Assembly: GCA_046538795.1 (NCBI GenBank)
Contig: JBKHIF010000006.1
Span: forward strand, 1 to 34,029
Reading direction: 5' to 3'
DNA length: 34,029 nt
Source of the DNA: Candidatus Woesearchaeota archaeon
GTDB taxonomy: Archaea > Nanobdellota > Nanobdellia > Woesearchaeales > CAZJJJ01
Shown: piece by piece, positions 16,690 through 31,661 of the stretch
How positions within the stretch are numbered: the stretch's first letter is position 1
Layout: each line of letters starts with the position of its first letter
Notes under the pieces: generated by a model
The model's database searches: none
What the model saw: the letters and a program-made list of their open reading frames with translations, nothing else
What the model was told of the DNA's origin: nothing
Program-made: the position numbers and the translations under genes

Positions 16690-18258
16690 ATGAATAAAGA
16701 TGATGTTGCTCCGGACAAGTATTTTTATATTCATGATGGGAGATCTATTAAGAATATATCAGAGCTTGCATCTATGCTTTCTTCTATGGATGATGCTGTC
16801 TTTTCTTTTCACGTCAACGAATCAAAGAATGATTTTGCAAGCTGGGTGAGATTTGTTGTTGATTCTCCTCAACTTGCCGATTCTATGGATAACGTAAAAG
16901 ATAAGGATAAGATGGCTTCTTTGATACTAAAATCTATTTCTGGAGAGGATGGGGAAAAGGTGTCTGAAATTTCTGGCAAGTCTCAGGAAAATAATAAAGA
17001 AGATGAAGTTCTGGAAAAATCTGCTGGCGAAACTAAAACAGTTCGTGAAAAAAAAGTGCAAAAATCACATGATTCTGATCTTTTCTCTTTTTCATCATCT
17101 AATAAGCATGAAGAAAAAAAGAACAAATCTGGAAAAATCAAGACTGGCGATCTAAAAAAAGAAAACAACGGTTCTTCAAAATTACCGCCTGTAAAGGAAA
17201 AAAAACATCATGATGAAAAATCTCCTCCAAAAAATAAATCGTCTGCAAAAAGCTCTGTTCTTTCTAATAAATATGAAGATGATTTTGATTGGAAGAATAT
17301 GCTTGATGATATGAAACTTGGAGAGCAGGAAGATATGCTTTCAAGGATAAGTAGAAGGATAAAAGAGATGAACTCAGAGATAAGCGGCGAAGGTAAAAAA
17401 ATATCATCAGATAAGGAATTTGAAAAAAACAAAAAAGAAAGCTCAGAAGAGATGGAAAAATATGTCAAATCAGATGATTCTGAAAGATTTGAGTCTCTTG
17501 CAGATGATTCTGTTGATTTTCTTGAAGAGCTTTCAAAAAGATTGGAATCTCATAGAAAACGATTTTCAGAATCAGATAAAAAACAAGAAGACATACACGA
17601 ATTTCATCCTGCAAAGAAAATCATCAAAAAGGTGGTAAAAGAAGATGCAGATCCTGAACTGATTATTGAAAAAGGGCTTGATCTTGAAAAAACAAATAAG
17701 CTTCTTTCAAAATATAACTCTATTATGAACGATACAGTGAAAAAAAGTATGAAGAGAACTTCTATGCATACATCTGGTGATGATGATTCATCCAAAGAAA
17801 AAAGAGAAAAACATGTTTCTCATAAGACTTATCATCATAATCGTTCTCAAGATAAAAAACATAAGACTGGAGAAAATAATATTGGTTATTTCAGTATAAT
17901 AGAAAGAACTGATGATCTTGAAGGCATAAGTTCAAAATTTGAATCTGATGATGACGGCGATAGCGGGCAAACTTTTGATGATGGGTCTGCACATGAAAAA
18001 ACTGATGAGAAGCAAAAAAAGGAAAAAAGTTCAAAAAATAAAGTATCAAAAGGAAATTCGCGTGGCTTTTTCAGCATCTTTAAAAAATTAAAGATGGGTT
18101 CTCTTAATTCTGTCGGTGCAATGGAACATGAAAAAAAAGCACAGGAAAATATTACTGTCATACGAGATCCTCTTGTGGAAATATCAGGGATATCTGATTT
18201 CATAAAAGGTCTTCTCATAGGTATGATTATCGGGATGGTTTTTCTTCTGGTATTTTGA
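16690..18258 (+). CDS. Hypothetical protein: DUF5752-like N-terminal domain, long charged low-complexity region, C-terminal TM anchor
   Basis: FYIHDGRSIKNISELASMLSSMDDAVFSFHVNESKNDFASWV; K/E/S/D-rich middle; ends FIKGLLIGMIIGMVFLLVF. Confidence 0.75.
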   Translation: MNKDDVAPDKYFYIHDGRSIKNISELASMLSSMDDAVFSFHVNESKNDFASWVRFVVDSPQLADSMDNVKDKDKMASLILKSISGEDGEKVSEISGKSQENNKEDEVLEKSAGETKTVREKKVQKSHDSDLFSFSSSNKHEEKKNKSGKIKTGDLKKENNGSSKLPPVKEKKHHDEKSPPKNKSSAKSSVLSNKYEDDFDWKNMLDDMKLGEQEDMLSRISRRIKEMNSEISGEGKKISSDKEFEKNKKESSEEMEKYVKSDDSERFESLADDSVDFLEELSKRLESHRKRFSESDKKQEDIHEFHPAKKIIKKVVKEDADPELIIEKGLDLEKTNKLLSKYNSIMNDTVKKSMKRTSMHTSGDDDSSKEKREKHVSHKTYHHNRSQDKKHKTGENNIGYFSIIERTDDLEGISSKFESDDDGDSGQTFDDGSAHEKTDEKQKKEKSSKNKVSKGNSRGFFSIFKKLKMGSLNSVGAMEHEKKAQENITVIRDPLVEISGISDFIKGLLIGMIIGMVFLLVF

Positions 18259-18366
18259 AACTTAATAAAAATTAATCTTGTCTGACATTGCATTTCGTTT
18301 AACATATATGCACAGATCTTTAAAAATCAGAAAACAATATAAATCATTGATCTAAAATAAACACTT

Positions 18367-19638
18367 ATGGATATTATTTTTCATGGTGGGGCAAGAGAGG
18401 TTGGTAGAAGCTGTATTGAAATTAAAGACAATGGTTCTTCTAAAAGGGTCATACTTGACTGTGGGATAAAGGTCCATGAACATGGCATAGATCATCCGAC
18501 AACCATAAGCGATATGGAAAATATTGATGCTTTATTTCTGAGCCACGCTCATCTTGACCATACTGGTTCTCTTCCTTTGTTTGATCATATGGGGATGAAA
18601 TGCCCAATATTTTGCACGCCGGTGACAAAATCTATAACAAAAACTCTTTTGGACGATTCTTTTCACATACAGCTTCTCAAACATAAGCATCCTGCTTATT
18701 CGGAATTTGACATAGATGATGTCATGAAAAGAATGAGGCTTGTTGATTACAGGAAAAAAGGAACCTATTCAGGTATTGATTATGAATTTTTTGATGCAGG
18801 CCACATACCTGGAAGTGCATCGATACTTCTTGAGATTGGTGGAAAAAGAATACTCTACACAGGCGATTTCAATACTGTGAAGACAAGGCTTCTTAGCGGA
18901 GCAGACACAACTTATAATAACATAGATGTGATGATAACAGAATCCACCTATGGTGACTGCGATCATCCATCGAGAAAAAAAGAGGAAAACAGCTTTATCC
19001 AAAGCATAAAATCTATATTGGCAGGCAATGGTTCTGTTCTTATTCCTGTTTTCTCATTAGGGAGAGCCCAGGAGATTGCGCTCTTGCTTTCAGATTATGA
19101 ATTTCCTGCAAAAATATATATGGATGGCATGGCAAGAAAGATAACAAGAATATGCACAAATGCAAAGAGATTTGAATCTTCAGATATTTTGAGACAAGCC
19201 ATGAAAAAAATAAAAATGGTAAACGACAGGGATGAACGTGAAAGGATAATATTTTCTAAAGGTATTTTTTTAAGTACATCAGGAATGCTTAACGGCGGAC
19301 CTGTTCTAAGCTATCTGAACAAGCTATGGCATAATCCACGATCAGGCATACTCATGACAGGATATCAGGCAAATGGCACAAACGGAAGGATGCTTCTTGA
19401 ATCAGAACGTGCATATGTTGATGGAATGCAGATACATTTTGACGGTCCTATTAAAAAATATGATTTTTCTGCACACAGCGGTAAAAATAATATAGTTAAT
19501 CTGGTAAAAAAAATCAGGCCCAAGAACCTTATAATAAATCATGGAGATCATGGTGCTATGATTGAACTTGAGAATTCAGTAAAAGGCATTGTTGAAAATG
19601 TATTTGTTCCAGAGGCTGACCAGTTGCTGAAAATATAG
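18367..19638 (+). CDS. Metallo-beta-lactamase beta-CASP ribonuclease (aCPSF-like, no KH domains)
   Basis: GGAREVGRSC, SHAHLDH, AGHIPGSA, YTGDF, ESTYG, P.FSLGRAQE, FSAH, HGD. Confidence 0.92.
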   Translation: MDIIFHGGAREVGRSCIEIKDNGSSKRVILDCGIKVHEHGIDHPTTISDMENIDALFLSHAHLDHTGSLPLFDHMGMKCPIFCTPVTKSITKTLLDDSFHIQLLKHKHPAYSEFDIDDVMKRMRLVDYRKKGTYSGIDYEFFDAGHIPGSASILLEIGGKRILYTGDFNTVKTRLLSGADTTYNNIDVMITESTYGDCDHPSRKKEENSFIQSIKSILAGNGSVLIPVFSLGRAQEIALLLSDYEFPAKIYMDGMARKITRICTNAKRFESSDILRQAMKKIKMVNDRDERERIIFSKGIFLSTSGMLNGGPVLSYLNKLWHNPRSGILMTGYQANGTNGRMLLESERAYVDGMQIHFDGPIKKYDFSAHSGKNNIVNLVKKIRPKNLIINHGDHGAMIELENSVKGIVENVFVPEADQLLKI

Positions 19639-19749
19639 GTCATAATCCTTGCAGTCAAACATTTTTATATCTTGTTAATCACGCACTGCCAGGTAAATTA
19701 TATGTCATAAATACATCATTGTTTGACTTATTCTGTATGACCGAAATAC

Positions 19750-19764
19750 CGAAACATTTAAATA
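19750..19764 (+). promoter_or_regulatory. Putative BRE/TATA of the archaellin array
   Basis: cgaaaca-tttaaata about 60 bp upstream of the first archaellin; RBS GAGGTGA at 19813-19819. Confidence 0.6.
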
Positions 19765-19823
19765 GGAGCATGCTCTAAGTTATCTCAATGTGTGTTTTTG
19801 TGGTGTATGGTTGAGGTGATTTG

Positions 19824-20426
19824 ATGTTTAAAGGCAAAAGGGCCGAAGTCGGCATAGGTACATTGATTTTATTCATAGCAATGATTCTTGTCGCCGCTAT
19901 TGCTGCGAGTGTTCTAATCCAGACTGCAACAAGTCTTCAGAATAAGGCTCTTTTGACTGGCAAGCGCACCCAAGAGCAGATTTCTACTGGGATAAGTGTT
20001 CTTCTGGTATATGCAGAAGATGGCTCAACAAACAATGATCTTGATAATTTTAGTATGAAGATTAAATTGACTCCTGGTTCTGAACCATTAAAACTTAATG
20101 ATACTCTTATTGAATTTGATCTTAGCGATGGATCTGCTGATCTGGAATATAATAGTACTGGCGATTGTGAAACTGCTGGATCTTTCAAGACATCTACAAG
20201 TGGTGATGGTGTTTTTGCTGCAACTCACCTTGTTGAAGGGAGTGAATACAGGCAGCATTATCTGCACAGCGGTGATGTTGTGAAAGTTTGCTTTGCATCT
20301 CCAAGATCAATAACTCCTGATGAGGATATAGCTATAAGAATAATACCAAAGGTTGGAATACCGTCGGTAATTGAGACTGCGACGCCAGAAGTTATCAATC
20401 AACAGAGATCATATATATTCCCATAA
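19824..20426 (+). CDS. arlB: Archaellin, type A copy 1
   Basis: Class III signal [55 protein letters not shown]. Confidence 0.95.
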   Translation: MFKGKRAEVGIGTLILFIAMILVAAIAASVLIQTATSLQNKALLTGKRTQEQISTGISVLLVYAEDGSTNNDLDNFSMKIKLTPGSEPLKLNDTLIEFDLSDGSADLEYNSTGDCETAGSFKTSTSGDGVFAATHLVEGSEYRQHYLHSGDVVKVCFASPRSITPDEDIAIRIIPKVGIPSVIETATPEVINQQRSYIFP

Positions 20427-20460
20427 AGATTGAATTGAGTTTGAGATTACAGGTGAAATT

Positions 20461-21090
20461 ATGATGATGGATAAAAAAGCTGAAACAGGCATAGGAACTT
20501 TGATATTATTTATTGCAATGATTCTTGTTGCAGCTATTGCTGCTAGTGTTTTGATACAGACTGCGACATCTTTGCAGAACAAGGCGCTTTTAACAGGAGA
20601 TCGGACCCAGGGTCAGGTTTCAACAGGACTTACCACTCTTTTGATATATGGTACTAATGGTTCTGATGGTTCAATAGAAGATTTCAGGCACAAGCTGAAA
20701 TTATCTCCAGGCTCAGATCCAATCTCTATGGATGATATGCTTATTGAATTCGGTACTGAAGACCTTAGTTCTGACTATACTTATGTTGGAACTAATTGCA
20801 GTTACTATGGTGCTTGCGATGGAAGTTATTCCTCTGCTTTGGGTTATTGCGGAGACACTGCTAACAATAATGGAACATTTGCAGTGAAATATCTTGTCAA
20901 AGGATCAAATCACCAAGATGGTTATCTTGTAAGGGGAGACGTTGCAATGCTTTGCTACAGGGCTCCTGGTGGCATTGGTGAAGATACTACTCTTGTCATA
21001 AGGATAGTTCCTCCAAGAGGAATCGCTATGGCTGTGGAAACAGCTACGCCAAACATTATGGCTTCAGAAAGGGTATATGTATTTCCATGA
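20461..21090 (+). CDS. arlB: Archaellin, type B copy 1
   Basis: [17 protein letters not shown]-terminus; YGTNGSDG; four Cys; AGGTGA RBS. Confidence 0.95.
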   Translation: MMMDKKAETGIGTLILFIAMILVAAIAASVLIQTATSLQNKALLTGDRTQGQVSTGLTTLLIYGTNGSDGSIEDFRHKLKLSPGSDPISMDDMLIEFGTEDLSSDYTYVGTNCSYYGACDGSYSSALGYCGDTANNNGTFAVKYLVKGSNHQDGYLVRGDVAMLCYRAPGGIGEDTTLVIRIVPPRGIAMAVETATPNIMASERVYVFP

Positions 21091-21115
21091 ATGATTAATA
21101 AAAGGTGAAATTACG

Positions 21116-21691
21116 ATGATGAATAAGAAAGCTGATACTGGAATTGGAACATTGATACTGTTTATTGCCATGATTCTTGTGGCTGCTATTGCTGCGGGAG
21201 TCCTGATACAGACCGCGACGTCTTTGCAGAATAAGGCGCTCCTTACGGGAGATCGTACTAAGGGCCAGGTATCCACTTCCTTGTCTGTTCTTTTGATATA
21301 TGCAGAAGATGGCAGTGTTGGAAATTACGTGAACAATTTCAGTCTGAAATTAAAACTTTCTCCAGGTTCAGACCCAATAAAACTTAATGATACGTTGATT
21401 GAAGTTGATCTTTCAGACAGCTCATCTGATCTTACATATGATCCTCTGAATACCTGTCCTGCAACAACTACTGGTAATTTTAGCGTTAATTACCTTGTCC
21501 AGGGTGCTGACTATACCGAACATTATCTTCACAGGGGAGATATAATCATGCTATGCTTCCAGGCTCCAAGAGCAGTTCTTGCTGATGAGGATATTGCAAT
21601 AAGAGTTATTCCAAAGGTTGGAACTCCTACAGTTATCGAGACTGCAACGCCAGAAGTGATAAATCAGAAGAGAGCTTATATTTTTCCATGA
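21116..21691 (+). CDS. arlB: Archaellin, type A copy 2
   Basis: [42 protein letters not shown]. Confidence 0.95.
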   Translation: MMNKKADTGIGTLILFIAMILVAAIAAGVLIQTATSLQNKALLTGDRTKGQVSTSLSVLLIYAEDGSVGNYVNNFSLKLKLSPGSDPIKLNDTLIEVDLSDSSSDLTYDPLNTCPATTTGNFSVNYLVQGADYTEHYLHRGDIIMLCFQAPRAVLADEDIAIRVIPKVGTPTVIETATPEVINQKRAYIFP

Positions 21692-21734
21692 ATTAGAGAA
21701 TTTATTTTAAACAAATTGATTAGGTGAAATTACG

Positions 21735-22364
21735 ATGATGAATAAAAAAGCTGAAACCGGAATTGGAACATTGATATTGTTTATCGCAATGATTCTTGTA
21801 GCTGCTATTGCTGCGGGAGTCTTGATACAGACAGCGACGTCTTTGCAGAATAAGGCGCTCCTTACAGGAGATCGTACTAAAGGACAGGTATCAACAGGCC
21901 TTACAACCTTGTTGCTTTACGGTACTAATGGTTCTGACGGTACAATAGAGGATTTTAGGCAGAAGATCAAGCTTTCTCCTGGTTCAGATCCAATAACCAT
22001 GCATGATGCATTGATTGAGTTTGGTGTTGCATCATCTAATGTTGATCTTACTTATATTGGAACAAACTGCACTTATTATGGTTCAGACTGTAATAGTAGT
22101 TATGCTAGCAATCTTGGTTACTGCAGCGATCCAGATAACGATAACGGAACATTTGCAGTGAATTATCTTGTCAATGGTCCTAACCACCAGGATGGATACC
22201 TTGTAAGAGGAGATATCGCAATGCTTTGTTTCAGAGGTCCAAGCGGAGTCGAAGAAGACAAGAGCATAAGGATAAGCTTTATACCAAAGAAAGGGACACA
22301 GATGACAGTTGAGACAGCAACTCCAAACATCATGACGTCCGAAAGGGTTTACATATTCCCATAA
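21735..22364 (+). CDS. arlB: Archaellin, type B copy 2
   Basis: [41 protein letters not shown]. Confidence 0.95.
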   Translation: MMNKKAETGIGTLILFIAMILVAAIAAGVLIQTATSLQNKALLTGDRTKGQVSTGLTTLLLYGTNGSDGTIEDFRQKIKLSPGSDPITMHDALIEFGVASSNVDLTYIGTNCTYYGSDCNSSYASNLGYCSDPDNDNGTFAVNYLVNGPNHQDGYLVRGDIAMLCFRGPSGVEEDKSIRISFIPKKGTQMTVETATPNIMTSERVYIFP

Positions 22365-22388
22365 ATAACTGATTATAGGTGAATGACG

Positions 22389-22964
22389 ATGATGAATAAA
22401 AAAGCTGATACAGGCATAGGAACATTGATCTTGTTTATTGCAATGATCCTTGTTGCTGCAATTGCTGCGGGAGTCTTGATACAGACTGCAACATCACTAC
22501 AGAACAAGGCACTCCTTACAGGAGATCGTACCAAAGGTCAAGTATCGACATCCATGTCTGTACTTTTGATATATGCTGAGGATGGAAGCACAGGTAATTA
22601 TGTAAACAATTTTAGCATGAAACTAAAGCTTTCTCCAGGTTCAGACCCAATAAAACTCAATGATACTCTGATCGAGGTTGATCTGTCGGATAGTTCATCT
22701 GATCTTACATATGATCCTCTTGTTACATGTCCTACATCAACAGCAGGAAATTTCAGTGTGGAATATCTTGTTCAGGGATCAGATTATTCAGAGCATTATC
22801 TGCACAGAGGAGATATAATCAAACTATGTTTCCAGGCTCCAAGAGCAGTTCTTGCTGATGAGGATATTGCAATCAGGATAATACCAAAGGTTGGAACTCC
22901 TACAGTTATCGAGACTGCAACGCCAGAGGTTATTAACCAGAGAAGGTCATATATATTTCCTTGA
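22389..22964 (+). CDS. arlB: Archaellin, type A copy 3
   Basis: [23 protein letters not shown]. Start chosen from spacing to AGGTGA at 22377-22382. Confidence 0.95.
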   Translation: MMNKKADTGIGTLILFIAMILVAAIAAGVLIQTATSLQNKALLTGDRTKGQVSTSMSVLLIYAEDGSTGNYVNNFSMKLKLSPGSDPIKLNDTLIEVDLSDSSSDLTYDPLVTCPTSTAGNFSVEYLVQGSDYSEHYLHRGDIIKLCFQAPRAVLADEDIAIRIIPKVGTPTVIETATPEVINQRRSYIFP

Positions 22965-22994
22965 TTTTAAGGATTGATGTGCGGTGAATTAATT

Positions 22995-23621
22995 ATGGAT
23001 AAGAAGGCAGAAACAGGCATAGGTACATTGATTTTGTTTATTGCAATGATCCTTGTTGCGGCAATTGCTGCAGGCGTTCTTATCCAGACTGCAACATCTT
23101 TGCAAAATAAGGCACTATTGACCGGAGATCGGACCCAGGGTCAGGTATCTACCGGGCTTACTACTTTGCTTCTTTATGGCACAAATGGTTCTGATGGCAC
23201 GATTGAAGATTTCAGGCAGAAGATCAAGCTTTCTCCAGGTTCAGATCCAATCACTATGAATGATGGTCTGATTGAGTTTGGAATGTCTTCATCCAGCAGT
23301 GATCTGATTTATGTTGGGACAAATTGCACTTATTATGGTTCAGACTGTAACAGCAGCTATGAAGACCATCTTGGTTATTGCAGTGATGCTGCAAATGACA
23401 ATGGAACTTATACAGTAAAGTATCTTGTTGAGGGACCTAATCATGAGGATGGTTATCTGGTAAGAGGAGATATCGCAATGCTTTGCTTCAGAAGCTCTGT
23501 AGATGTAGAAGAAGATAAAAGCATAAGGATAAGTTTTGTGCCTAAGCGTGGAACTCCTATGACTGTTGAGACCGCTACACCCAATATAATGAATTCAGAG
23601 AGAATATATATCTTCCCTTGA
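22995..23621 (+). CDS. arlB: Archaellin, type B copy 3
   Basis: [23 protein letters not shown] at 22983-22987 supports ATG 22995. Confidence 0.95.
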
Positions 23622-23649
23622 ATTAATGGCTGACAAAAGTAAATTATGT

Positions 23650-23688
23650 GCTTTTTCAATTTCTTTTTTCTTTTTATTAATTTTCTTG
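23650..23688 (+). terminator. Putative oligo-T terminator after the six-gene archaellin block
   Basis: Several consecutive T-runs 30-65 bp downstream of the stop, followed by a new TATA (gaaaactatataaa, 23694-23707). Confidence 0.5.
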
Positions 23689-23752
23689 AAATAGAAAACT
23701 ATATAAACTTCCTTTCTATAATATTTTCTTATTCATTTAGGGTGGTGGTATT

Positions 23753-24325
23753 TTGAAGAAAGGTGAAGTTGGCATAGGGACTCTTATATTATTTATAGCG
23801 ATGATTCTTGTTGCTGCTATTGCAGCAAGCGTTCTGATACAGACTGCGACAAGCCTTCAGAACAAGGCTCTTCTGACTGGAAAAAGAACACAAAGTGTTG
23901 TTGGATCTGGGATGCAGGCTCTTTTGTTATACGGAACAGATGGTTCTGATGACGCAAGGATAGAAGAGCTTAGGCTTAAGGTCAAACTGATGGCTGGTTC
24001 AGAATCAATACGTTTCAATGAAACCTTGATCGAAGTGGATACAAGAAACGATTCTATAGACTTAGAATATAGCTCAGGTTTATGCAATGATTCCAATACT
24101 AATTCAACTCATTTTACTGTAGAGACTCTTATTGAGGGAGCTAATTCTAGAACAGGATATCTTCAGTCAGGAGATGTTGTGATGATTTGTTTTGATGCGC
24201 CTCATCCCATGGCAAAAGACGAAGAGCTTCAGGTAAGGATTATTCCAAGATACGCTCAGGTTTTGCTGATTGAAACAGCAATCCCTGAAACAGTACTTAC
24301 AAACAGGGTATTTATCTTTCCATGA
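23753..24325 (+). CDS. arlB: Archaellin, divergent type C
   Basis: [29 protein letters not shown]; ends RVFIFP; apparent own promoter. Confidence 0.93.
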   Translation: MKKGEVGIGTLILFIAMILVAAIAASVLIQTATSLQNKALLTGKRTQSVVGSGMQALLLYGTDGSDDARIEELRLKVKLMAGSESIRFNETLIEVDTRNDSIDLEYSSGLCNDSNTNSTHFTVETLIEGANSRTGYLQSGDVVMICFDAPHPMAKDEELQVRIIPRYAQVLLIETAIPETVLTNRVFIFP

Positions 24326-24452
24326 GATGTAAGTTTTATTATCGAACTTTATCGAACTCTAAGGTGAGGAGTTTGCCTGTGAGGCACTATTTTTAGCAGA
24401 TGAGAGGAGATTAATCTTTGAATTTTTTTATTGAAAACTTTTCGGCAATATC

Positions 24453-24600
24453 TGGTGCTTGGTTCCACAGGAATCCTCTTCAAGGAGCACTACGGTTGTG
24501 ACTCAAGAAGTCTTCAATTAGAAAATCACGTCTGTTGCGAAAGACGCAATACTTCGTACTTCAGTTAGGGGATATCTAAAACTTTCAGTTTTGGGGATTA
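24453..24600 (+). other. Structured non-coding island, possible IS200/IS605-family end or omegaRNA-like remnant
   Basis: Locally higher GC with several stems: TGGTGCTT/GAGCACTA, GGTTCC/GGAATC, GAAGT/ACTTC, TTGCG/CGCAA, CTAAAAC/GTTTTGG. No tnpA or tnpB in the window; family assignment is by resemblance only. Confidence 0.35.
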
Positions 24601-24647
24601 GAACTTTTTTAAATTTTTAATAAACTTAAGCAGTGGTTTTCTTTATC

Positions 24648-25772
24648 TCATTGGATCAACTTTAATTTATTCTTTATTGATTCTATCTCATTATCTTTTT
24701 TTTCAGAATTATTTTTGTTTATCATTATTTCTTCAGGAATAGTTCCTGTTTCTTTATATGATGTTTCCTGCTTGTTGCTGTTTATATCCCTTACATATCT
24801 TTTCTTTTCAGTTTCAAGATCTTCTTTTACTGAGTTTATCTTTACAGGAACTTTGTTTTCTCTTAAAAGCGATAAGAGCCCATACCACTGATCCTGAGTC
24901 CAGTCAGCTTTGTTTTTTGCAACAAAATCTCTGATTATCTCTTCATAGGTCAATGGCCTGTTTTGCTGGATAGATTCTTTTATGATTTCTTTTTGTTCTT
25001 CTTGTTTTTGCACTTTTTCTGTAATTGATGACAGTTTATTTTTGATCTCACTGATATTTTGCACATCATTTTTTTGAGGCTTTATTTTTTTCATATTTTT
25101 AATAAGCCCTTTTAAATCAGGAAATTCTATCTTTATTTTTTTTCTTTCTTTTTTCACTTTCTCTTTGGTTTCTGTCTTGATATTTTCTTTTTTGATCTTT
25201 TTTGTCTTGATTGTTACGAAAGTCTGATATGAAAAATATCCCAAAAACATGAGCAGAAAGATTATTATCAAAGCATTAATAAGATGGGTTTCGATAAATG
25301 AAAATAAACCTTTCATAAATCCTGATCTGTTTTCTTCTACCCTGAAATTAACAACAATCGTTTCAGGAGAAACAGGATATGAGCTTGATCCTCTCATCAT
25401 AAGAACTGAATTATCTTTCTTGTTGACAATAGCAGGTATTATCTGAAAGCTGTAGTTTATTTCGGGGTTGGGATTTTTTCTTAGGGCATTGCTCAGATCA
25501 AATGAAAAAGAAATTTTCTTTTCTTCATTAGGACCTAATTCAAAAACCTCTTCCTGAAAATTTATCTTGACAAAACCGTATGTATCAACAACATTAAGCT
25601 TGATATTGAGCTGTTGAGCCCTATTATTTGTAAGGGTAAATTCCAAATGGTTATCTTTTTCCTCTGCGAGTCCAAAATCCTTATTGATAAGTCTTTCATT
25701 TTCTGCTGTAGCTGCATAGCTAGAAAACAGAAGTATCAGAATGAATAAAATCTTGAAAAGAGTTCTCTTCAT
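24648..25772 (-). CDS. Hypothetical bitopic membrane protein
   Basis: Signal peptide, beta-rich Ig-like extracellular part, TM ALIIIFLLMFLGYFSY, Lys-rich cytoplasmic region. Confidence 0.75.
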   Translation of the reverse strand: MKRTLFKILFILILLFSSYAATAENERLINKDFGLAEEKDNHLEFTLTNNRAQQLNIKLNVVDTYGFVKINFQEEVFELGPNEEKKISFSFDLSNALRKNPNPEINYSFQIIPAIVNKKDNSVLMMRGSSSYPVSPETIVVNFRVEENRSGFMKGLFSFIETHLINALIIIFLLMFLGYFSYQTFVTIKTKKIKKENIKTETKEKVKKERKKIKIEFPDLKGLIKNMKKIKPQKNDVQNISEIKNKLSSITEKVQKQEEQKEIIKESIQQNRPLTYEEIIRDFVAKNKADWTQDQWYGLLSLLRENKVPVKINSVKEDLETEKKRYVRDINSNKQETSYKETGTIPEEIMINKNNSEKKDNEIESIKNKLKLIQ

Positions 25773-25832
25773 TTTTTTTATTTCCTCAAAGACTCTTATG
25801 ATGCATGAATTTAAATTCTTTTTTCTTTTTTG

Positions 25833-26708
25833 TTAAAAATCTTTGGATCTTTTGTATGGTATTCCTGATTCTTTAACAAGAGAGACTATCCTGTCTTTTT
25901 CTTTCCCTAGTCCTTTCCAGTCAAATATGATTATTTCTGCTGGTCTTGTTGATTGAGATAAGGCAGATTTAAGGTTTTCCTCGTTGAGATTTTCTAACGC
26001 ATATTTAGGGCACACGTGAGAAAAGGCAATGTTTTCATTTAGTATTATCTTCTTGAAATTGCTCATCGTGTGAGTTCCTCCTATACCAATAGCAGTTATG
26101 TTTTTTTTTGATATTATAGATTTCGCATTTTCTATAAGATGCATTATTGTTTCAGCTATTAGATCTCCTGCAATCTGATTTTTCCATTCGTTTTCCAAAG
26201 AACCTATCTCGATGAACATCACATGTGATTCAAGATATGGTCCATGGTGTGTTGCTTCCTGTACAACATCAAAATTTTTAAGTTCAGATATTTCAGAATG
26301 CCTTTTTTCCATGTAAATTATCGCTTCTTTTACAAATTGTTCTGATGCTTTGCATAAGAATCTGTCTTGTCCGCCCATCTCAGCATTTCCCCAATTTCCC
26401 GGAGTATGTGCTGTAAGAGAAGGTATTCCAGATCTTGAACTGTGTTTTGTCGCATATATTATGATATTTTTATCTAAATTATTATTTTCTTTAAGAAATG
26501 ATAATTTTTTATCTATATCATCATGGTCTATGGTTTCTTCAGATATAGTCACGAGCCGGGTTTCAGCATCTTTGTGTTCATAGATAAGATTTCCTTCATA
26601 TTTTTCTTTTGTTATTTTGAATTGTGACCTTTTAATAAGATTGTCTTTTATGTTCATCCCGGCAGGATCTTTTTCTGAAACAACAATCGTAATAATAATA
26701 TCTTTCAT
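25833..26708 (-). CDS. dtdA: D-aminoacyl-tRNA deacylase (archaeal DTD2/GEK1 type)
   Basis: S..DPAGMNI, KHSS..PSLTAHTPGN, EATHHGP, FIEIGS..EW, GIGGTH. Start is 26708 or 26729. Confidence 0.92.
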   Translation of the reverse strand: MKDIIITIVVSEKDPAGMNIKDNLIKRSQFKITKEKYEGNLIYEHKDAETRLVTISEETIDHDDIDKKLSFLKENNNLDKNIIIYATKHSSRSGIPSLTAHTPGNWGNAEMGGQDRFLCKASEQFVKEAIIYMEKRHSEISELKNFDVVQEATHHGPYLESHVMFIEIGSLENEWKNQIAGDLIAETIMHLIENAKSIISKKNITAIGIGGTHTMSNFKKIILNENIAFSHVCPKYALENLNEENLKSALSQSTRPAEIIIFDWKGLGKEKDRIVSLVKESGIPYKRSKDF

Positions 26709-26818
26709 AACCAAAAAGATGTAATTCATGATTTAATTAATTTGTTTTTTTAATTGAAAATAAAGATTAATTTTCTACCAAAAACTATATAAACCCGTAA
26801 GTAGTCACTAAATCTAAT

Positions 26819-27451
26819 ATGATTGGTGTGCTCAAGAAGTTTCTAAAAAAGTTTCTTAAAAGGCTTTTCAAGAAGAAAAAAAATGTAAAATTAGGTCTAT
26901 ATGGACCGCCCAATTCAGGAAAGACTACTCTTGCTAATAGGATTTGCAAAGACTGGTTGGGGGAAGATATGGGTTCTGTTTCAAAAGTTGCACACGAGAC
27001 AAGAGAAGTACAGATCAAAGAACAGATTAATCTTAAATCTGGCAACAAAGAACTTCTGTTCAATCTTGTCGATACTCCTGGCATTGCAACAAAGATTGAC
27101 TATGAAGACTTCCTTAAGGCTGGGCTTAAAGAAGATATTGCGAAAGAGAGGGCCAAAGAAGCTACAAAAGGAGTTATAGATTCAATCAAATGGCTTGACG
27201 ACATGGATGCTGTCGTAATAGTACTTGATTCAACTCTTGATCCATATTCACAGGTAAATATAACTATAGTAGGTAATCTGGTCGCAAAAGACATCCCTGT
27301 CCTTATAGCTGCAAACAAGACTGATCTGAAAAAATCAGACATGAAAAAGATCCAGTCTGCTTTTCCCCAATATAGAGTTATCGGAATATCTGCTAAGCAG
27401 GGAAAGAATATTGATGAATTTTATGAGTCATTATTTGATCTGGTCGAATAG
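26819..27451 (+). CDS. oapA: Small Era-like GTPase OapA
   Basis: GPPNSGKTTLANRI, HETR, DTPG, NKTD, ISAK; DP..QVN signature; first gene of the conserved three-gene operon. Confidence 0.88.
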   Translation: MIGVLKKFLKKFLKRLFKKKKNVKLGLYGPPNSGKTTLANRICKDWLGEDMGSVSKVAHETREVQIKEQINLKSGNKELLFNLVDTPGIATKIDYEDFLKAGLKEDIAKERAKEATKGVIDSIKWLDDMDAVVIVLDSTLDPYSQVNITIVGNLVAKDIPVLIAANKTDLKKSDMKKIQSAFPQYRVIGISAKQGKNIDEFYESLFDLVE

Positions 27452-27525
27452 TTGCGATTATATCTTTGAGTAAAGTTTTTATAGCCATGGATTTTAAGAT
27501 TGAAAAAGTAAGATTTTGAATTAAA

Positions 27526-28023
27526 ATGCTGACACTACAATTTATTCCATATGCAGAAATTGAATCCCTTAATTCACATTCCAGGATCCAAAAAGTTCTG
27601 GGCGTTATAAAAGATAATAAGATAGTTCTTATGGAAGGAAGGCTGAAAAAATCTGAAGAAGCAGAACTCATAAAAAAAACTATGGAAGAGATCGGCGAAA
27701 ATGCAGATAATGATTTTAAGGGAATTGAGCTTTCAGTTATACAGCCATCTCTTAAGAATAAGGATTTCTTCAGGCAGTTAAGGTACAGGTTTATAAATAT
27801 GATATTAGGAGATAGGCAGGGTTTCACTGTTGTAGGTCCTGCATCGATTGTAAAAGAGATAAAACAGGATCCTGATAAGCTTCAGCTTTTCATAGAAAAT
27901 ATTTCATCAGGTACATTATCTGTAGAAGATAACAGCACTTCATCAGATTATGAAGAAAACAATTCTAAAAACAATGGAAAAAAAAAGAAACGATCAAAGA
28001 AGCATAAGATCGGAAAGAGATAA
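27526..28023 (+). CDS. oapB: DUF2073 family protein OapB
   Basis: IVLMEGRL..EEAELI..TM..I....F.GIE and G.TVVGPA motifs; operon position. Confidence 0.85.
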   Translation: MLTLQFIPYAEIESLNSHSRIQKVLGVIKDNKIVLMEGRLKKSEEAELIKKTMEEIGENADNDFKGIELSVIQPSLKNKDFFRQLRYRFINMILGDRQGFTVVGPASIVKEIKQDPDKLQLFIENISSGTLSVEDNSTSSDYEENNSKNNGKKKKRSKKHKIGKR

Positions 28024-28025
28024 AA

Positions 28026-28439
28026 ATGCCTCATCAATGTGTTAGATGCGGAGCCATGTATGAAGATGGTTCTAATGAGATCTTGAAGGGCTGCTCATGC
28101 GGAAGCAAATTGTTCTTTTTTATAAAAAAAGAAAAGATAGATGAGCTTAAGAATGCCACTGTCAATCTTTCAGAAAATGAGAAAAAGCAGTTGGAAAAAG
28201 ACGTTCTTGATATAGTCGGCGAGAGAAAAAATGTGGAAACTGGCCCTGATGATGTCATTGTTCTTGACTTTGAATCAATAAGAGCCTTAAAACCTGGTGT
28301 CTTTGAACTGGATCTTGTAAATCTGTTTAATGAGAAAAATCCTTTGGTATATAAGCTTGCAGAAGGTAAATATGTTATTGATATTCCAGAAACCTTTTCA
28401 AGACATGGCAAGGAAGGTAAAGAAAAAAAAATGATCTAG
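28026..28439 (+). CDS. oapC: Zn-ribbon DUF2072 family protein OapC
   Basis: MPHQCVRCG..Y.DGS.EILKGCSCGSKLF; ESI...PG.FELDL..L; EGKY.I. Confidence 0.88.
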   Translation: MPHQCVRCGAMYEDGSNEILKGCSCGSKLFFFIKKEKIDELKNATVNLSENEKKQLEKDVLDIVGERKNVETGPDDVIVLDFESIRALKPGVFELDLVNLFNEKNPLVYKLAEGKYVIDIPETFSRHGKEGKEKKMI

Positions 28440-30170: not shown

Positions 30171-31661
30171 TCAATTAGAAGACGTTTTTTCAAGATAATA
30201 TTTTCTGAAGTTCATCCTTATACGTGCAGATGACATGACCAATGATCTTCTTTTTAATCCGAGGGAAGAGGCAAGCTGGTTTAGGTCATGACCATTTCTG
30301 CATGCATAGGTTTCAAAAATTTCTCTGCATCGTGGTGATAATTCTGACATATATTGATCAACAATTTTTTCAACATCTTGATCATCAGATTTTTCTAATC
30401 CCTGAAAAAAATCTTCGATTATCTTTTCTTTAGAATAAGTTATTTCAGGAAGTTCATCTGCTTCCAGTTTATTATATAATTCTCTGAATTCCTGTCTTAT
30501 ATTTGAAGCTGCAACACCCAGACTCCTTTTTGTCAATCCAAAATCAGAAGCAATCTCTTCAAGAGGTTTATCAGTTTCATTCCTGTTTGCATAAGAAACC
30601 AGCCTTTTTCTTTTTTCAGAAGGTAAATTGCTTACATATCTATGCATAAATTCAACTGTGTGGATAGATGGCCTTTTTGGAAAATCATATAACATGAAAT
30701 CTTCCACACTTTTAAGACATGCCTCAGGATAGATCTCTCTTTCAAAATCATCTTTTTCTGATCCAAATATAGATCTTAGAATTTCTGAAGAATCTATGAA
30801 ATCCTGATATATATTTATGTCCGGTTTGCCGATTTTCGCATGATCAAAACCAATCTGAAATTTCTCAAATTTTTTACTTACCTTTTTTTCAATCTGTCTT
30901 GTTCTTTCTTTACTGATTCCAAGATCATTTCCAATAGCTGATAATGAATTTCCATTTTTTTCATATTCATTCAAAAGGATTCTTCTTTTGAATACTTCTC
31001 TTTCGGTCTCATTTAATGTGGGAAGAAAATGTACAAGTATATCTCTTGCTTCGAAAATTGGATCACTTCTTTGTTTAAATTCTGCATTTTTATCTTCAAT
31101 AATGTCACTTAGTTCAGTATATCCATCAGAATTTTTATAAACTTCTTTATTGAGTGAGGAAACTTCAAGCGCATTTATCATTTTATTTATAATTTCCGGC
31201 TTAATCTTGAAGTAATCAGAAATTTCTTCAATGCTAGGATCTCTTTCATGTGTTTTTCTGAATTCATCTTGGTATTTTGATATTTGATTGAGAATATTGA
31301 TTTTGTTTTCAGGAATTCTTATTGTTGCAGAATTTTTTATGGCTTTTGTTATTTTTTGCCTGATCCACCAAACTGCATAACTTATAAAGTGATATCCTTT
31401 GTCAACTTCAAAGCGGTCAACAGCATCAATGAGTCCTTCATTACCCCAGGATATTCTTTCTTCAAGACTTAATCCATTATATTTTTTGGCAACATTGACT
31501 ACAAACTTAAGATTTGCCTCAACAATCTTGTTTTTGATATCTGGATCTTTTGTTTTTTCATATAAAGAAAATAATTCTTTTTCTTCTTCAGGTGTCAAGA
31601 GAGGGACCTTATTTATCGAAATAAAATAATTTTTGAGAGAATCCAACTCTGTATTTTTCAT
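30171..31661 (-). CDS. Bacterial-type RNA polymerase sigma-70 (RpoD/SigA-like) factor with C-terminal extension
   Basis: Region 1.2 DSLKNYF..I.KVPLLTPEEEKEL; region 2 EANLKFVVNVAKKY...GYHFISYAVWWIRQ; region 3 TIRIP...RDPSIEEIS; region 4 L..IG..LGISKERTRQIE. Confidence 0.92.
   Translation of the reverse strand: MKNTELDSLKNYFISINKVPLLTPEEEKELFSLYEKTKDPDIKNKIVEANLKFVVNVAKKYNGLSLEERISWGNEGLIDAVDRFEVDKGYHFISYAVWWIRQKITKAIKNSATIRIPENKINILNQISKYQDEFRKTHERDPSIEEISDYFKIKPEIINKMINALEVSSLNKEVYKNSDGYTELSDIIEDKNAEFKQRSDPIFEARDILVHFLPTLNETEREVFKRRILLNEYEKNGNSLSAIGNDLGISKERTRQIEKKVSKKFEKFQIGFDHAKIGKPDINIYQDFIDSSEILRSIFGSEKDDFEREIYPEACLKSVEDFMLYDFPKRPSIHTVEFMHRYVSNLPSEKRKRLVSYANRNETDKPLEEIASDFGLTKRSLGVAASNIRQEFRELYNKLEADELPEITYSKEKIIEDFFQGLEKSDDQDVEKIVDQYMSELSPRCREIFETYACRNGHDLNQLASSLGLKRRSLVMSSARIRMNFRKYYLEKTSSN

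Follow-up and report, generated by a model that had tools for sequence, protein, structure and literature searches.

A 34,029-nucleotide (nt) stretch of contig JBKHIF010000006.1 (assembly GCA_046538795.1) from a Candidatus Woesearchaeota archaeon, the whole of which is referred to here as the window, carries seven archaellin genes in the order A-B-A-B-A-B-C, where the letters denote three archaellin classes. We favor, with moderate confidence, an explanation in which an A-B-C core grew by two likely block duplications of an A+B pair, with A and B co-assembling and C acting as a minor subunit. A first-pass annotation of the window had described the same order, and this was borne out by the open reading frames (ORFs), the PF01917 matches, the identities among the variable "head" regions, and the trees.

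The seven same-strand ORFs, 190 to 209 amino acids (aa) long, span positions 19824 to 24325 of the window with internal stops in 0 of 7, and all seven products pass the PF01917 cut-off (92 to 109 bits against 29.5). The statement of the first-pass annotation that all copies are intact with their own ribosome-binding site (RBS) also stood, as 7 of 7 are full-length and each is preceded by such a site, GGTGA 4 to 7 nt 5' of the start in copies 1 to 6 and GGTGG in copy 7. The genes are listed below, with synonymous (dS) and nonsynonymous (dN) divergence where relevant.

19824..20426, + strand: archaellin copy 1, class A, subtype A1 (leader AEV, AAS, TGKRT), 200 aa; PF01917 109 bits; orthologue P0033 100/100
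20461..21090, + strand: archaellin copy 2, class B, 209 aa, four Cys, extra loop; B clade 100/100
21116..21691, + strand: archaellin copy 3, class A, subtype A2, 191 aa; sister of copy 5 (98/87); exact protein on three contigs
21735..22364, + strand: archaellin copy 4, class B, 209 aa; second strain with N120D and S121G
22389..22964, + strand: archaellin copy 5, class A, subtype A2, 191 aa; 90% head identity to copy 3; dS 1.0, dN 0.06
22995..23621, + strand: archaellin copy 6, class B, 208 aa; 83% head identity to copy 4; dS 2.15, dN 0.11
23753..24325, + strand: archaellin copy 7, class C, last gene, TTG start; C clade of five rows

By every feature testable in sequence and model, the seven genes are archaellins. 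A short, basic class III leader is followed by a hydrophobic N-terminal helix seen in the alignment and in both structural models. TIGR02537 lies above its cut-off in 3 of 3 copies scanned, and NCBIfam PRK08541 reaches 110 to 125 bits, under its cut-off of 210, in the three copies scanned. Foldseek ranks 1 to 10 for a model of copy 1 (pLDDT 63) are archaellins, the best being Methanocaldococcus villosus 7ofq_B (E 1.5e-8), and a class B model (pLDDT 71) has the same strand order and the helix. The Ca-binding D-x-D-x-S...N..D motif of M. villosus aligns partially in A and is not evident in B.

Residues 8 to 50 are nearly invariant over the seven copies in the alignment, and the heads form three groups. 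Head identity is 63 to 90% within A (copies 1, 3, and 5) and 68 to 83% within B (copies 2, 4, and 6), against 40 to 51% between A and B and 39 to 42% between copy 7 and all others; by BLAST, A and B are 49 to 58% identical. Tail dN is 0.01 to 0.04 among copies 2 to 6, so that one operon combines two archaellins that diverge in the head and are nearly identical in the tail. Leader type follows class, ADT with A and AET with B. The B motif given in the first-pass annotation fits copies 2, 4, and 6, and copy 7 fits neither the A nor the B motif; the A motif fits copies 1, 3, and 5 except that copy 1 reads VYAEDGS in place of IYAEDGS.

The head tree splits odd from even copies, in keeping with the earlier note. 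B forms a 100/100 clade of 21 rows, C forms a clade of five rows, and trees forcing copies 1+2 or 3+4 together were rejected (p-AU 1.4e-6 and 5.2e-9). A, B, and C are old classes common to the family that predate this genome, with B the better conserved (mean head identity 0.63 against 0.53 for A). Class C is the last gene wherever it was seen, and copy 7 is likely a minor archaellin. A B-profile search of 401 genomes of the taxonomic class gave matches at E<=1e-30 in four genomes, this genome (G000) included; the best score outside G000 was at most 138 bits, compared with 262 to 268 bits for the B copies of the window. A search for related loci over genome contigs found none with copy 5 and four with the B alignment. 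The A/B split does not extend beyond this family and its unbinned kin, so it arose independently of the one in Halorubrum.

Strict alternation of 3+3 genes as a bare ordering has a chance probability of 2/20 and is for this reason only modest evidence of order. An assembly artefact caused by two interleaved short repeats, with A-B-B-A-A-B-C as the true order, must also be weighed. Exact repeats shared between copies reach 44 and 32 nt at most. Contigs assembled at k=31 from two microbial-mat runs, which come from two studies and could each be a source of the assembly, extend over all 30 bins; they break at these repeats in both deep runs and none spans the array. Runs X3 and X4 (11 of 30 bins, low depth) were left out. 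Since the 44- and 32-nt repeats interleave, the k=31 contigs alone are compatible with either order. Set against this, head DNA is only 83% identical between copies 3 and 5 and 77% between copies 4 and 6, and full-length proteins with the junctions of the window lie on other contigs. Three contigs carry the exact copy-3 protein. A separate 29,472-nt contig has copies 4 and 5 with N- and C-terminal junctions like those of the window, and its copy 4 bears the same two second-strain substitutions as in run X2. This protein evidence for copies 3, 4, and 5 fits only the window's order, with which leader types and spacer lengths also agree. An artefact, which the earlier note had named as a possible refutation, is thus unlikely because another strain's assembly keeps the same gene junctions, and the rearranged order seems to us exceedingly improbable.

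Pairs (3,5) and (4,6) have 97 to 100 bootstrap in most trees (98/87 and 92/63 in one tree). Synonymous codon difference is 0.47 for copies 3 and 5 (n=90, outside a conversion tract) and 0.49 for copies 4 and 6 (n=125), and because these values are equal, copies 3-4 and 5-6 appear to stem from one block duplication. Given dN of 0.06 (copies 3/5) and 0.11 (copies 4/6) against dS of 1.0 and 2.15, that event is old and all copies are under purifying selection (dN/dS about 0.05 overall and 0.05 to 0.06 in the heads of these two youngest pairs). Copy 1 groups with P0033 and copies 3 and 5 with P0031, two proteins that another population encodes on short contigs; since copy 1 has an orthologue separate from that of copies 3 and 5, its split from them is older than the 3-4/5-6 duplication and predates the separation from that population. 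Support for (1,3,5) and (2,4,6) varies between trees, from 60/25 and 78/59 up to 99/94 and 95/95. The proposal that an A+B pair was triplicated as a unit therefore held for the last event, from 3-4 to 5-6, on the trees and the synonymous match; derivation of copies 1-2 from a pair duplication is plausible and less well resolved.

Two segments were marked as exchanged between copies.

21557..21654, + strand: gene conversion tract of copies 3/5, 98 nt, nearly identical to 22830-22927; synonymous drop
21100..21270, + strand: RBS and tail of copy 3, homogenized with copy 4 across classes; 32-nt exact repeat at 21215 and 21834

Inside the 98-nt tract, the synonymous codon difference of copies 3 and 5 falls to 0.125 (n=32). 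The tails of copies 3 and 4 differ at 0.24 of synonymous codons compared with 0.39 to 0.68 for the other 20 pairs, and their shared RBS region and similar tails reflect conversion across classes.

Relatives place the array in a wider range of patterns. A PF01917 search gave matches in 19 of 61 genomes, including 6 of 6 family members, and the comparison set comprised 57 regions chosen from match lists plus 14 metagenome loci. The sole complete family array, that of G003, reads A-A-B-C; partial arrays read A-A-A-B and then are cut (G002), A-A-B (G001), B-B'-B-C (G006), and A-A followed by a cut (G004 and G005). Alternation is not the family rule, and the conserved 1:1 gene balance implied by the first-pass annotation is absent from G003 (2A:1B:1C), G002 (three A, then B), and G006. 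B comes immediately after the last A in each of the six arrays (window, G001, G002, G003, L038, and L041) with a readable junction there. In an unbinned relative, locus L039 (A, then B cut off) ends inside a B gene and locus L038 starts with the end of a B gene followed by A, B, and C; the frames meet with one base missing, the downstream genes are syntenic, and the join would probably give A-B-A-B-C. Positional orthology between the window and L039/L038 (p-AU 0.09, 0.34, 0.10, and 0.04) was neither supported nor clearly rejected, and either independent duplication or concerted evolution would be compatible with these values. Four proteins that share a 34,613-nt longest contig are two A and two B, which gives class counts and no order, and two B proteins that share a 1,354-nt longest contig suggest B-B neighbors.

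Twenty-nine archaellin runs contained at least three ORFs, and a multi-gene period was present in 4 of the 14 with at least four: the window, G006 (B-B'-B), G080 (XYZ-XYZ-XZ), and G130 (long-short twice). G042, G181, and G025 are single-class expansions, and the seven-gene array of G054, with at most a weak period of 3, was not counted as periodic. The G080 locus (L052, G080:C20, 836-7902) holds ten archaellin-like genes, one long, one W, and then X-Y-Z-X-Y-Z-X-Z. The G130 locus (L054, G130:C13, 2175-5226) carries two copies of a long-short archaellin pair (about 295 and 206 aa), and the copies are identical over 1,508 nt; this may be a very recent duplication or an assembly artefact.

Charged residues bear on whether A and B pair. 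Ten charged positions, given in copy-5 numbering, are A-only or B-only by an 80/20% rule with strong contrast over 25 A and 21 B rows. E63, K/R88, E157, and D/E179 are present in 25/25 A rows and in 0 of 20 to 21 B rows (0/21 for both E63 and K/R88), and R151 in 20/25 A against 0/20 B; R75, in turn, is found in 0/25 A and 21/21 B rows, and E155 in 0/25 A and 20/20 scorable B rows. The other short archaellins form a set of 93 rows, drawn from other families and eight solo family genes and including two exact duplicates and some unplaced metagenome rows. A base at 88 or 151 is combined with an acid at 155 in 72 of them, 9 have the base only, 9 the acid at 155 only, and 3 neither. All 25 A rows keep the basic side alone and all 20 scorable B rows keep E155 alone. 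In G080, class Y keeps the basic side alone and directly precedes class Z, which keeps E155 alone, while every row of the single-class arrays G042, G054, G181, and G323 keeps both sides. The reciprocal A/B charges resemble the partition of a self-complementary interface, as would be expected in a heteropolymer. A and B are likely the two major subunits co-assembling in one filament, and the retention of both classes across the family, together with the reciprocal charges, makes a two-class filament plausible.

Several points weigh against paired growth and co-assembly as we read them. A-B-A-B was seen in 0 of 6 family genomes, and the 2A:1B:1C array of G003 indicates that 1:1 gene balance is not required. 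The first duplication, involving copies 1-2, is weakly resolved in some trees (60/25 and 78/59), the L039-L038 join crosses a one-base gap without overlap, and the G130 repeat may be an artefact. The charge positions were picked after the data had been seen, the family's solo archaellins share several B-like states, and the charge losses may involve intramolecular pairs. In addition, the available text of earlier reports describes three archaellum structures as homopolymers despite multi-gene operons, and the five archaellins of Halobacterium salinarum as unassignable to a repeating pattern (PMC8821640, PMC11239922).

A stricter reading makes the filament obligately and strictly alternating, of the M. 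villosus type: ancestral self-complementary n+3 salt bridges would have been split between A and B, so that only balanced A+B block duplications would be well tolerated. The charge pattern (K/R88 and/or R151 with D/E155 in 72/93 other rows, one-sided A and B rows, the Y/Z split of G080, and two-sided single-class arrays) speaks for this, as do (AB)n-C arrays in probably two lineages and the 34,613-nt contig that seems to hold two A and two B. We nevertheless consider it rather unlikely: arrays in genus g2 are unbalanced, the 1,354-nt contig points to B-B neighbors, the charged residues are known from sequence alone and were analyzed post hoc, and single subunits reportedly still form filaments in Halorubrum lacusprofundi (PMC7349177). 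A bolder extension is that Woesearchaeota repeatedly made obligate heteropolymers by splitting K/R88+R151 from E155 bridges, with the array period equal to the filament repeat, (AB)3 here and a three-subunit XYZ in G080, and within-class paralogues mixing at class-specific lattice sites; this would be quite unlikely on present evidence.

In the explanation that we favor, the A-B-C core common to the family would have undergone two tandem block duplications of the A+B pair, presumably by unequal crossing-over between near-identical helix-coding 5' ends. An offset of one gene would yield A-A-B or B-B and an offset of two A-B-A-B, so that offset alone could account for all array patterns. Because the head decides the class, every crossover product would remain a working gene. 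Extra pairs may have been retained because they raise the dose of a very abundant protein without upsetting the A:B balance, and within class A, as within class B, the three copies would largely be able to replace one another. On this view the order of the genes records how they were duplicated and does not prove the order of subunits in the filament. The fixed stoichiometry advanced in the first-pass annotation does not follow from gene order, given relatives with A-A-B-C, A-A-A-B, and B-B'-B-C.

Spacers between copies 1 to 6 are 24 to 43 nt, compared with 131 nt before copy 7. Because these spacers are short and no promoter-like gap lies between the genes, the sequence suggests that copies 1 to 6 share one transcript. 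Two flanking elements were noted.

19742..19764, + strand: putative archaeal promoter, B recognition element (BRE)-like CGAAA and TATA-like TTTAAATA, about 60 nt 5' of copy 1
23622..23752, + strand: 131-nt spacer with T-rich tract and TATA-like TATATAAA at 23700, from sequence inspection

Both sites were judged against the archaeal promoter consensus, and their promoter function is presumed. The 131-nt spacer possibly combines a terminator with a separate promoter for copy 7. A scan for sigma-70-type promoters and terminators, a type ill-suited to archaea, gave chance-level results, and an Rfam search of 18000-27000 returned no match at E<=1.

Transcription also bears on the proposal that A and B form separate homopolymeric filaments, or are condition-switched ecoparalogues, with alternation a relic of duplication. 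Block duplications arise mechanically in such arrays, gene ratios vary over the family, and ecoparalogues are reported in Haloarcula marismortui (PMC8821640). One likely transcript for copies 1 to 6, however, would make separate regulation of interleaved genes hard, and the near-identical tails would permit co-polymerization, which makes this proposal decidedly unlikely in our estimate.

The first-pass annotation further proposed combinatorial surface variants for host attachment or virus evasion. Differences between copies are concentrated in loops, with copies 4 and 6 differing at 29 residues and copies 3 and 5 at 14, mostly there. Over 7 kb, two strains show three full-depth differences, one silent and two adjacent replacements in copy 4 (N120D and S121G) that remove one N-X-S sequon from the B loop of the second strain, a hint drawn from three sites. 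Virus evasion by archaellin switching and host attachment by archaella have been suggested speculatively for haloarchaea (PMC6011602) and DPANN archaea (PMC11606122), respectively. A repertoire kept for surface variation is nonetheless highly improbable. Head dN/dS of about 0.05 to 0.06 in the two youngest pairs gives no sign of diversifying selection on exposed parts, and copies 3 and 5 differ at only 14 of 191 residues despite near-saturating synonymous change. Conversion homogenizes and does not diversify, no silent or truncated donor copies were found among the seven, all being full-length with an RBS, and Pfam identified no recombinase family among the 29 ORFs of the window; the strain comparison itself is limited to n=3. 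The variant hypothesis was thus left unsupported, with the motor and CheW genes pointing to motility instead.

The genome (1.34 Mb, 35% GC, 97.6% complete) encodes ArlF/G-like, ArlH, ArlI, and ArlJ proteins and one more archaellin on contig C3. Only ArlI passes its NCBIfam cut-off (705 bits; cut-off 550), the best hits of ArlH (211; 215), ArlJ (445; 550), and ArlF/G-like proteins (60/50; 110) falling below theirs. A class III peptidase (Peptidase_A24) lies on contig C97, four CheW matches on contigs C86 and C25, and four further archaellin-like genes on C14 (two), C51, and C2. Because motor and CheW-domain genes are present, the archaeon is likely motile, with the seven genes as its main archaellin array. 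Scattered archaellum genes are described as usual in Nanobdellati (PMC13705601), archaellins are among the top expressed genes of Woesearchaeota in Lake Dziani Dzaha (PMC11606122), and free Nanobdella cells are reported to swim (PMC11104419).

Other archaellum-related genes were seen along the way. Long archaellins of 297 to 325 aa with an inserted domain of about 110 aa (G000:C14 2605-4487 and G000:C2 2141-3118, both - strand) belong to a type that recurs in many genomes of the order and are possibly decorating or hook-like subunits. A 522-aa low-complexity protein (window 16690-18258, + strand) has no Pfam or NCBIfam hit; its N-terminal domain of about 80 aa finds matches inside the archaellum motor operons of G009, G054, G027, and G030, which makes it a candidate for an unrecognized archaellum accessory in an ArlCDE-like position in Woesearchaeota. 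In four motor operons of Woesearchaeota, a winged-helix-like gene, a candidate archaellum regulator, adjoins arlF/G in the opposite orientation.

G000:C3 1-527 (- strand); L029 8334-8930; L010 13632-14207; L030 3836-4435: winged-helix-like gene, fold inferred from sequence

The closest structural precedent is the archaellum of M. villosus, in which ArlB1 and ArlB2 alternate along 3-start strands and ArlB3 is the third, last gene (PMC8821640; PDB 7OFQ). Both systems combine two archaellins that share nearly the same tail but differ in the head (56.5% identity there; 49 to 58% by BLAST here), one archaellin with an extra loop (glycosylated in M. villosus), and a third gene placed last, and M. 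villosus is the top Foldseek match of the copy-1 model. They differ in that M. villosus, according to the published account, has one gene per subunit and a demonstrated alternation, whereas here conserved cysteines are present and the alternation is one of gene order. Halorubrum B1 and B2 form a roughly 1:1 heteropolymer, the flaB1-flaB2 operon is duplicated in 9 of 47 species (e.g., Hrr. aidingense, Hrr. tropicale, and Hrr. sp. WN019), and flaB1 was lost by recombination in the leader (PMC7349177); consecutive accession numbers suggest that the duplicates are tandem B1-B2-B1-B2. The likenesses to our array include two strongly diverged, family-conserved classes in one operon, the shorter before the longer, class signatures at residues 50 to 75 and at the C-terminus, a pair duplicated as a unit, and gene number altered by recombination in the conserved 5' end. 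Three pairs with a terminal class C in a DPANN lineage set the present array apart, and co-assembly is proven in Halorubrum, while only genes are available here.

Multi-archaellin loci are also known from Halobacterium salinarum (five), Thermococcus kodakarensis (five in tandem) (PMC10117864, PMC11239922, PMC7349177, PMC6011602), and Halohasta litchfieldiae (seven; PMC7349177, PMC6011602). Like the window, these loci hold between five and seven archaellin genes whose 5' ends are conserved, and the genes are co-expressed in those species; the accessible accounts of these loci, however, describe no two-class periodic order, and H. salinarum paralogues, unlike A and B here, are more than 80% identical and unassigned in the map. 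Among DPANN archaea, Nanobdella aerobiophila has two ArlB homologues (PMC11104419, bioRxiv 10.1101/2023.10.27.564410). Archaellin genes apart from the motor operon are shared with N. aerobiophila and the Lake Dziani Dzaha Woesearchaeota (PMC11104419, PMC11606122), along with reports of very high expression, motility of free cells, and a segmented filament structure for which minor subunits would be required; no periodic array is described in the available text on either. Gene count, two-class design, and pair duplication are already known elsewhere, and a literature search whose coverage leaves most subscription journals outside found no periodic Woesearchaeota array, this A/B split, or a period-3 array.

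The array is flanked by a beta-CASP nuclease gene on one side and dtdA-oapABC on the other, a position kept in family genomes. The oapA-oapB-oapC cluster (window 26819-28439, + strand), syntenic with the array in these genomes, is often origin-associated in other archaea, going by Pfam names. A dispersed repeat of about 125 to 145 nt with hairpins (window 24497-24640) has 14 other matches in the genome at 78 to 89% identity, which are intergenic where checked and several of which lie at contig ends; it has no Rfam match, and by its appearance we take it to be like a miniature inverted-repeat transposable element (MITE) or an insertion sequence (IS) end. A 496-aa protein (window 30171-31661, - strand) contains sigma-70 regions 1.2, 2, 3, and 4 plus about 230 extra C-terminal residues, with four matches in its own genome and matches in 10 of 31 genomes searched and 0 of 6 family members; sigma-70 genes in Woesearchaeota have already been reported (PMC8204110).

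A single alternating filament has been solved so far, in a field that still asks why archaea keep many archaellins. Tail-mediated unequal crossing-over alone can yield a periodic gene order, which cautions against reading such an order as filament stoichiometry. The three-subunit XYZ filament of G080, if true, would be an archaellum type for which no report was found in the literature searched. Within the family, 25 A and 21 B sequences document an independent A/B split, and the ratio of the classes varies from array to array; outgroups with one class retain the ancestral residues, and another family has an array of period 3. The transition from homomer to heteromer in a filament thereby becomes testable, and the array of this woesearchaeote is a good natural test case for it.

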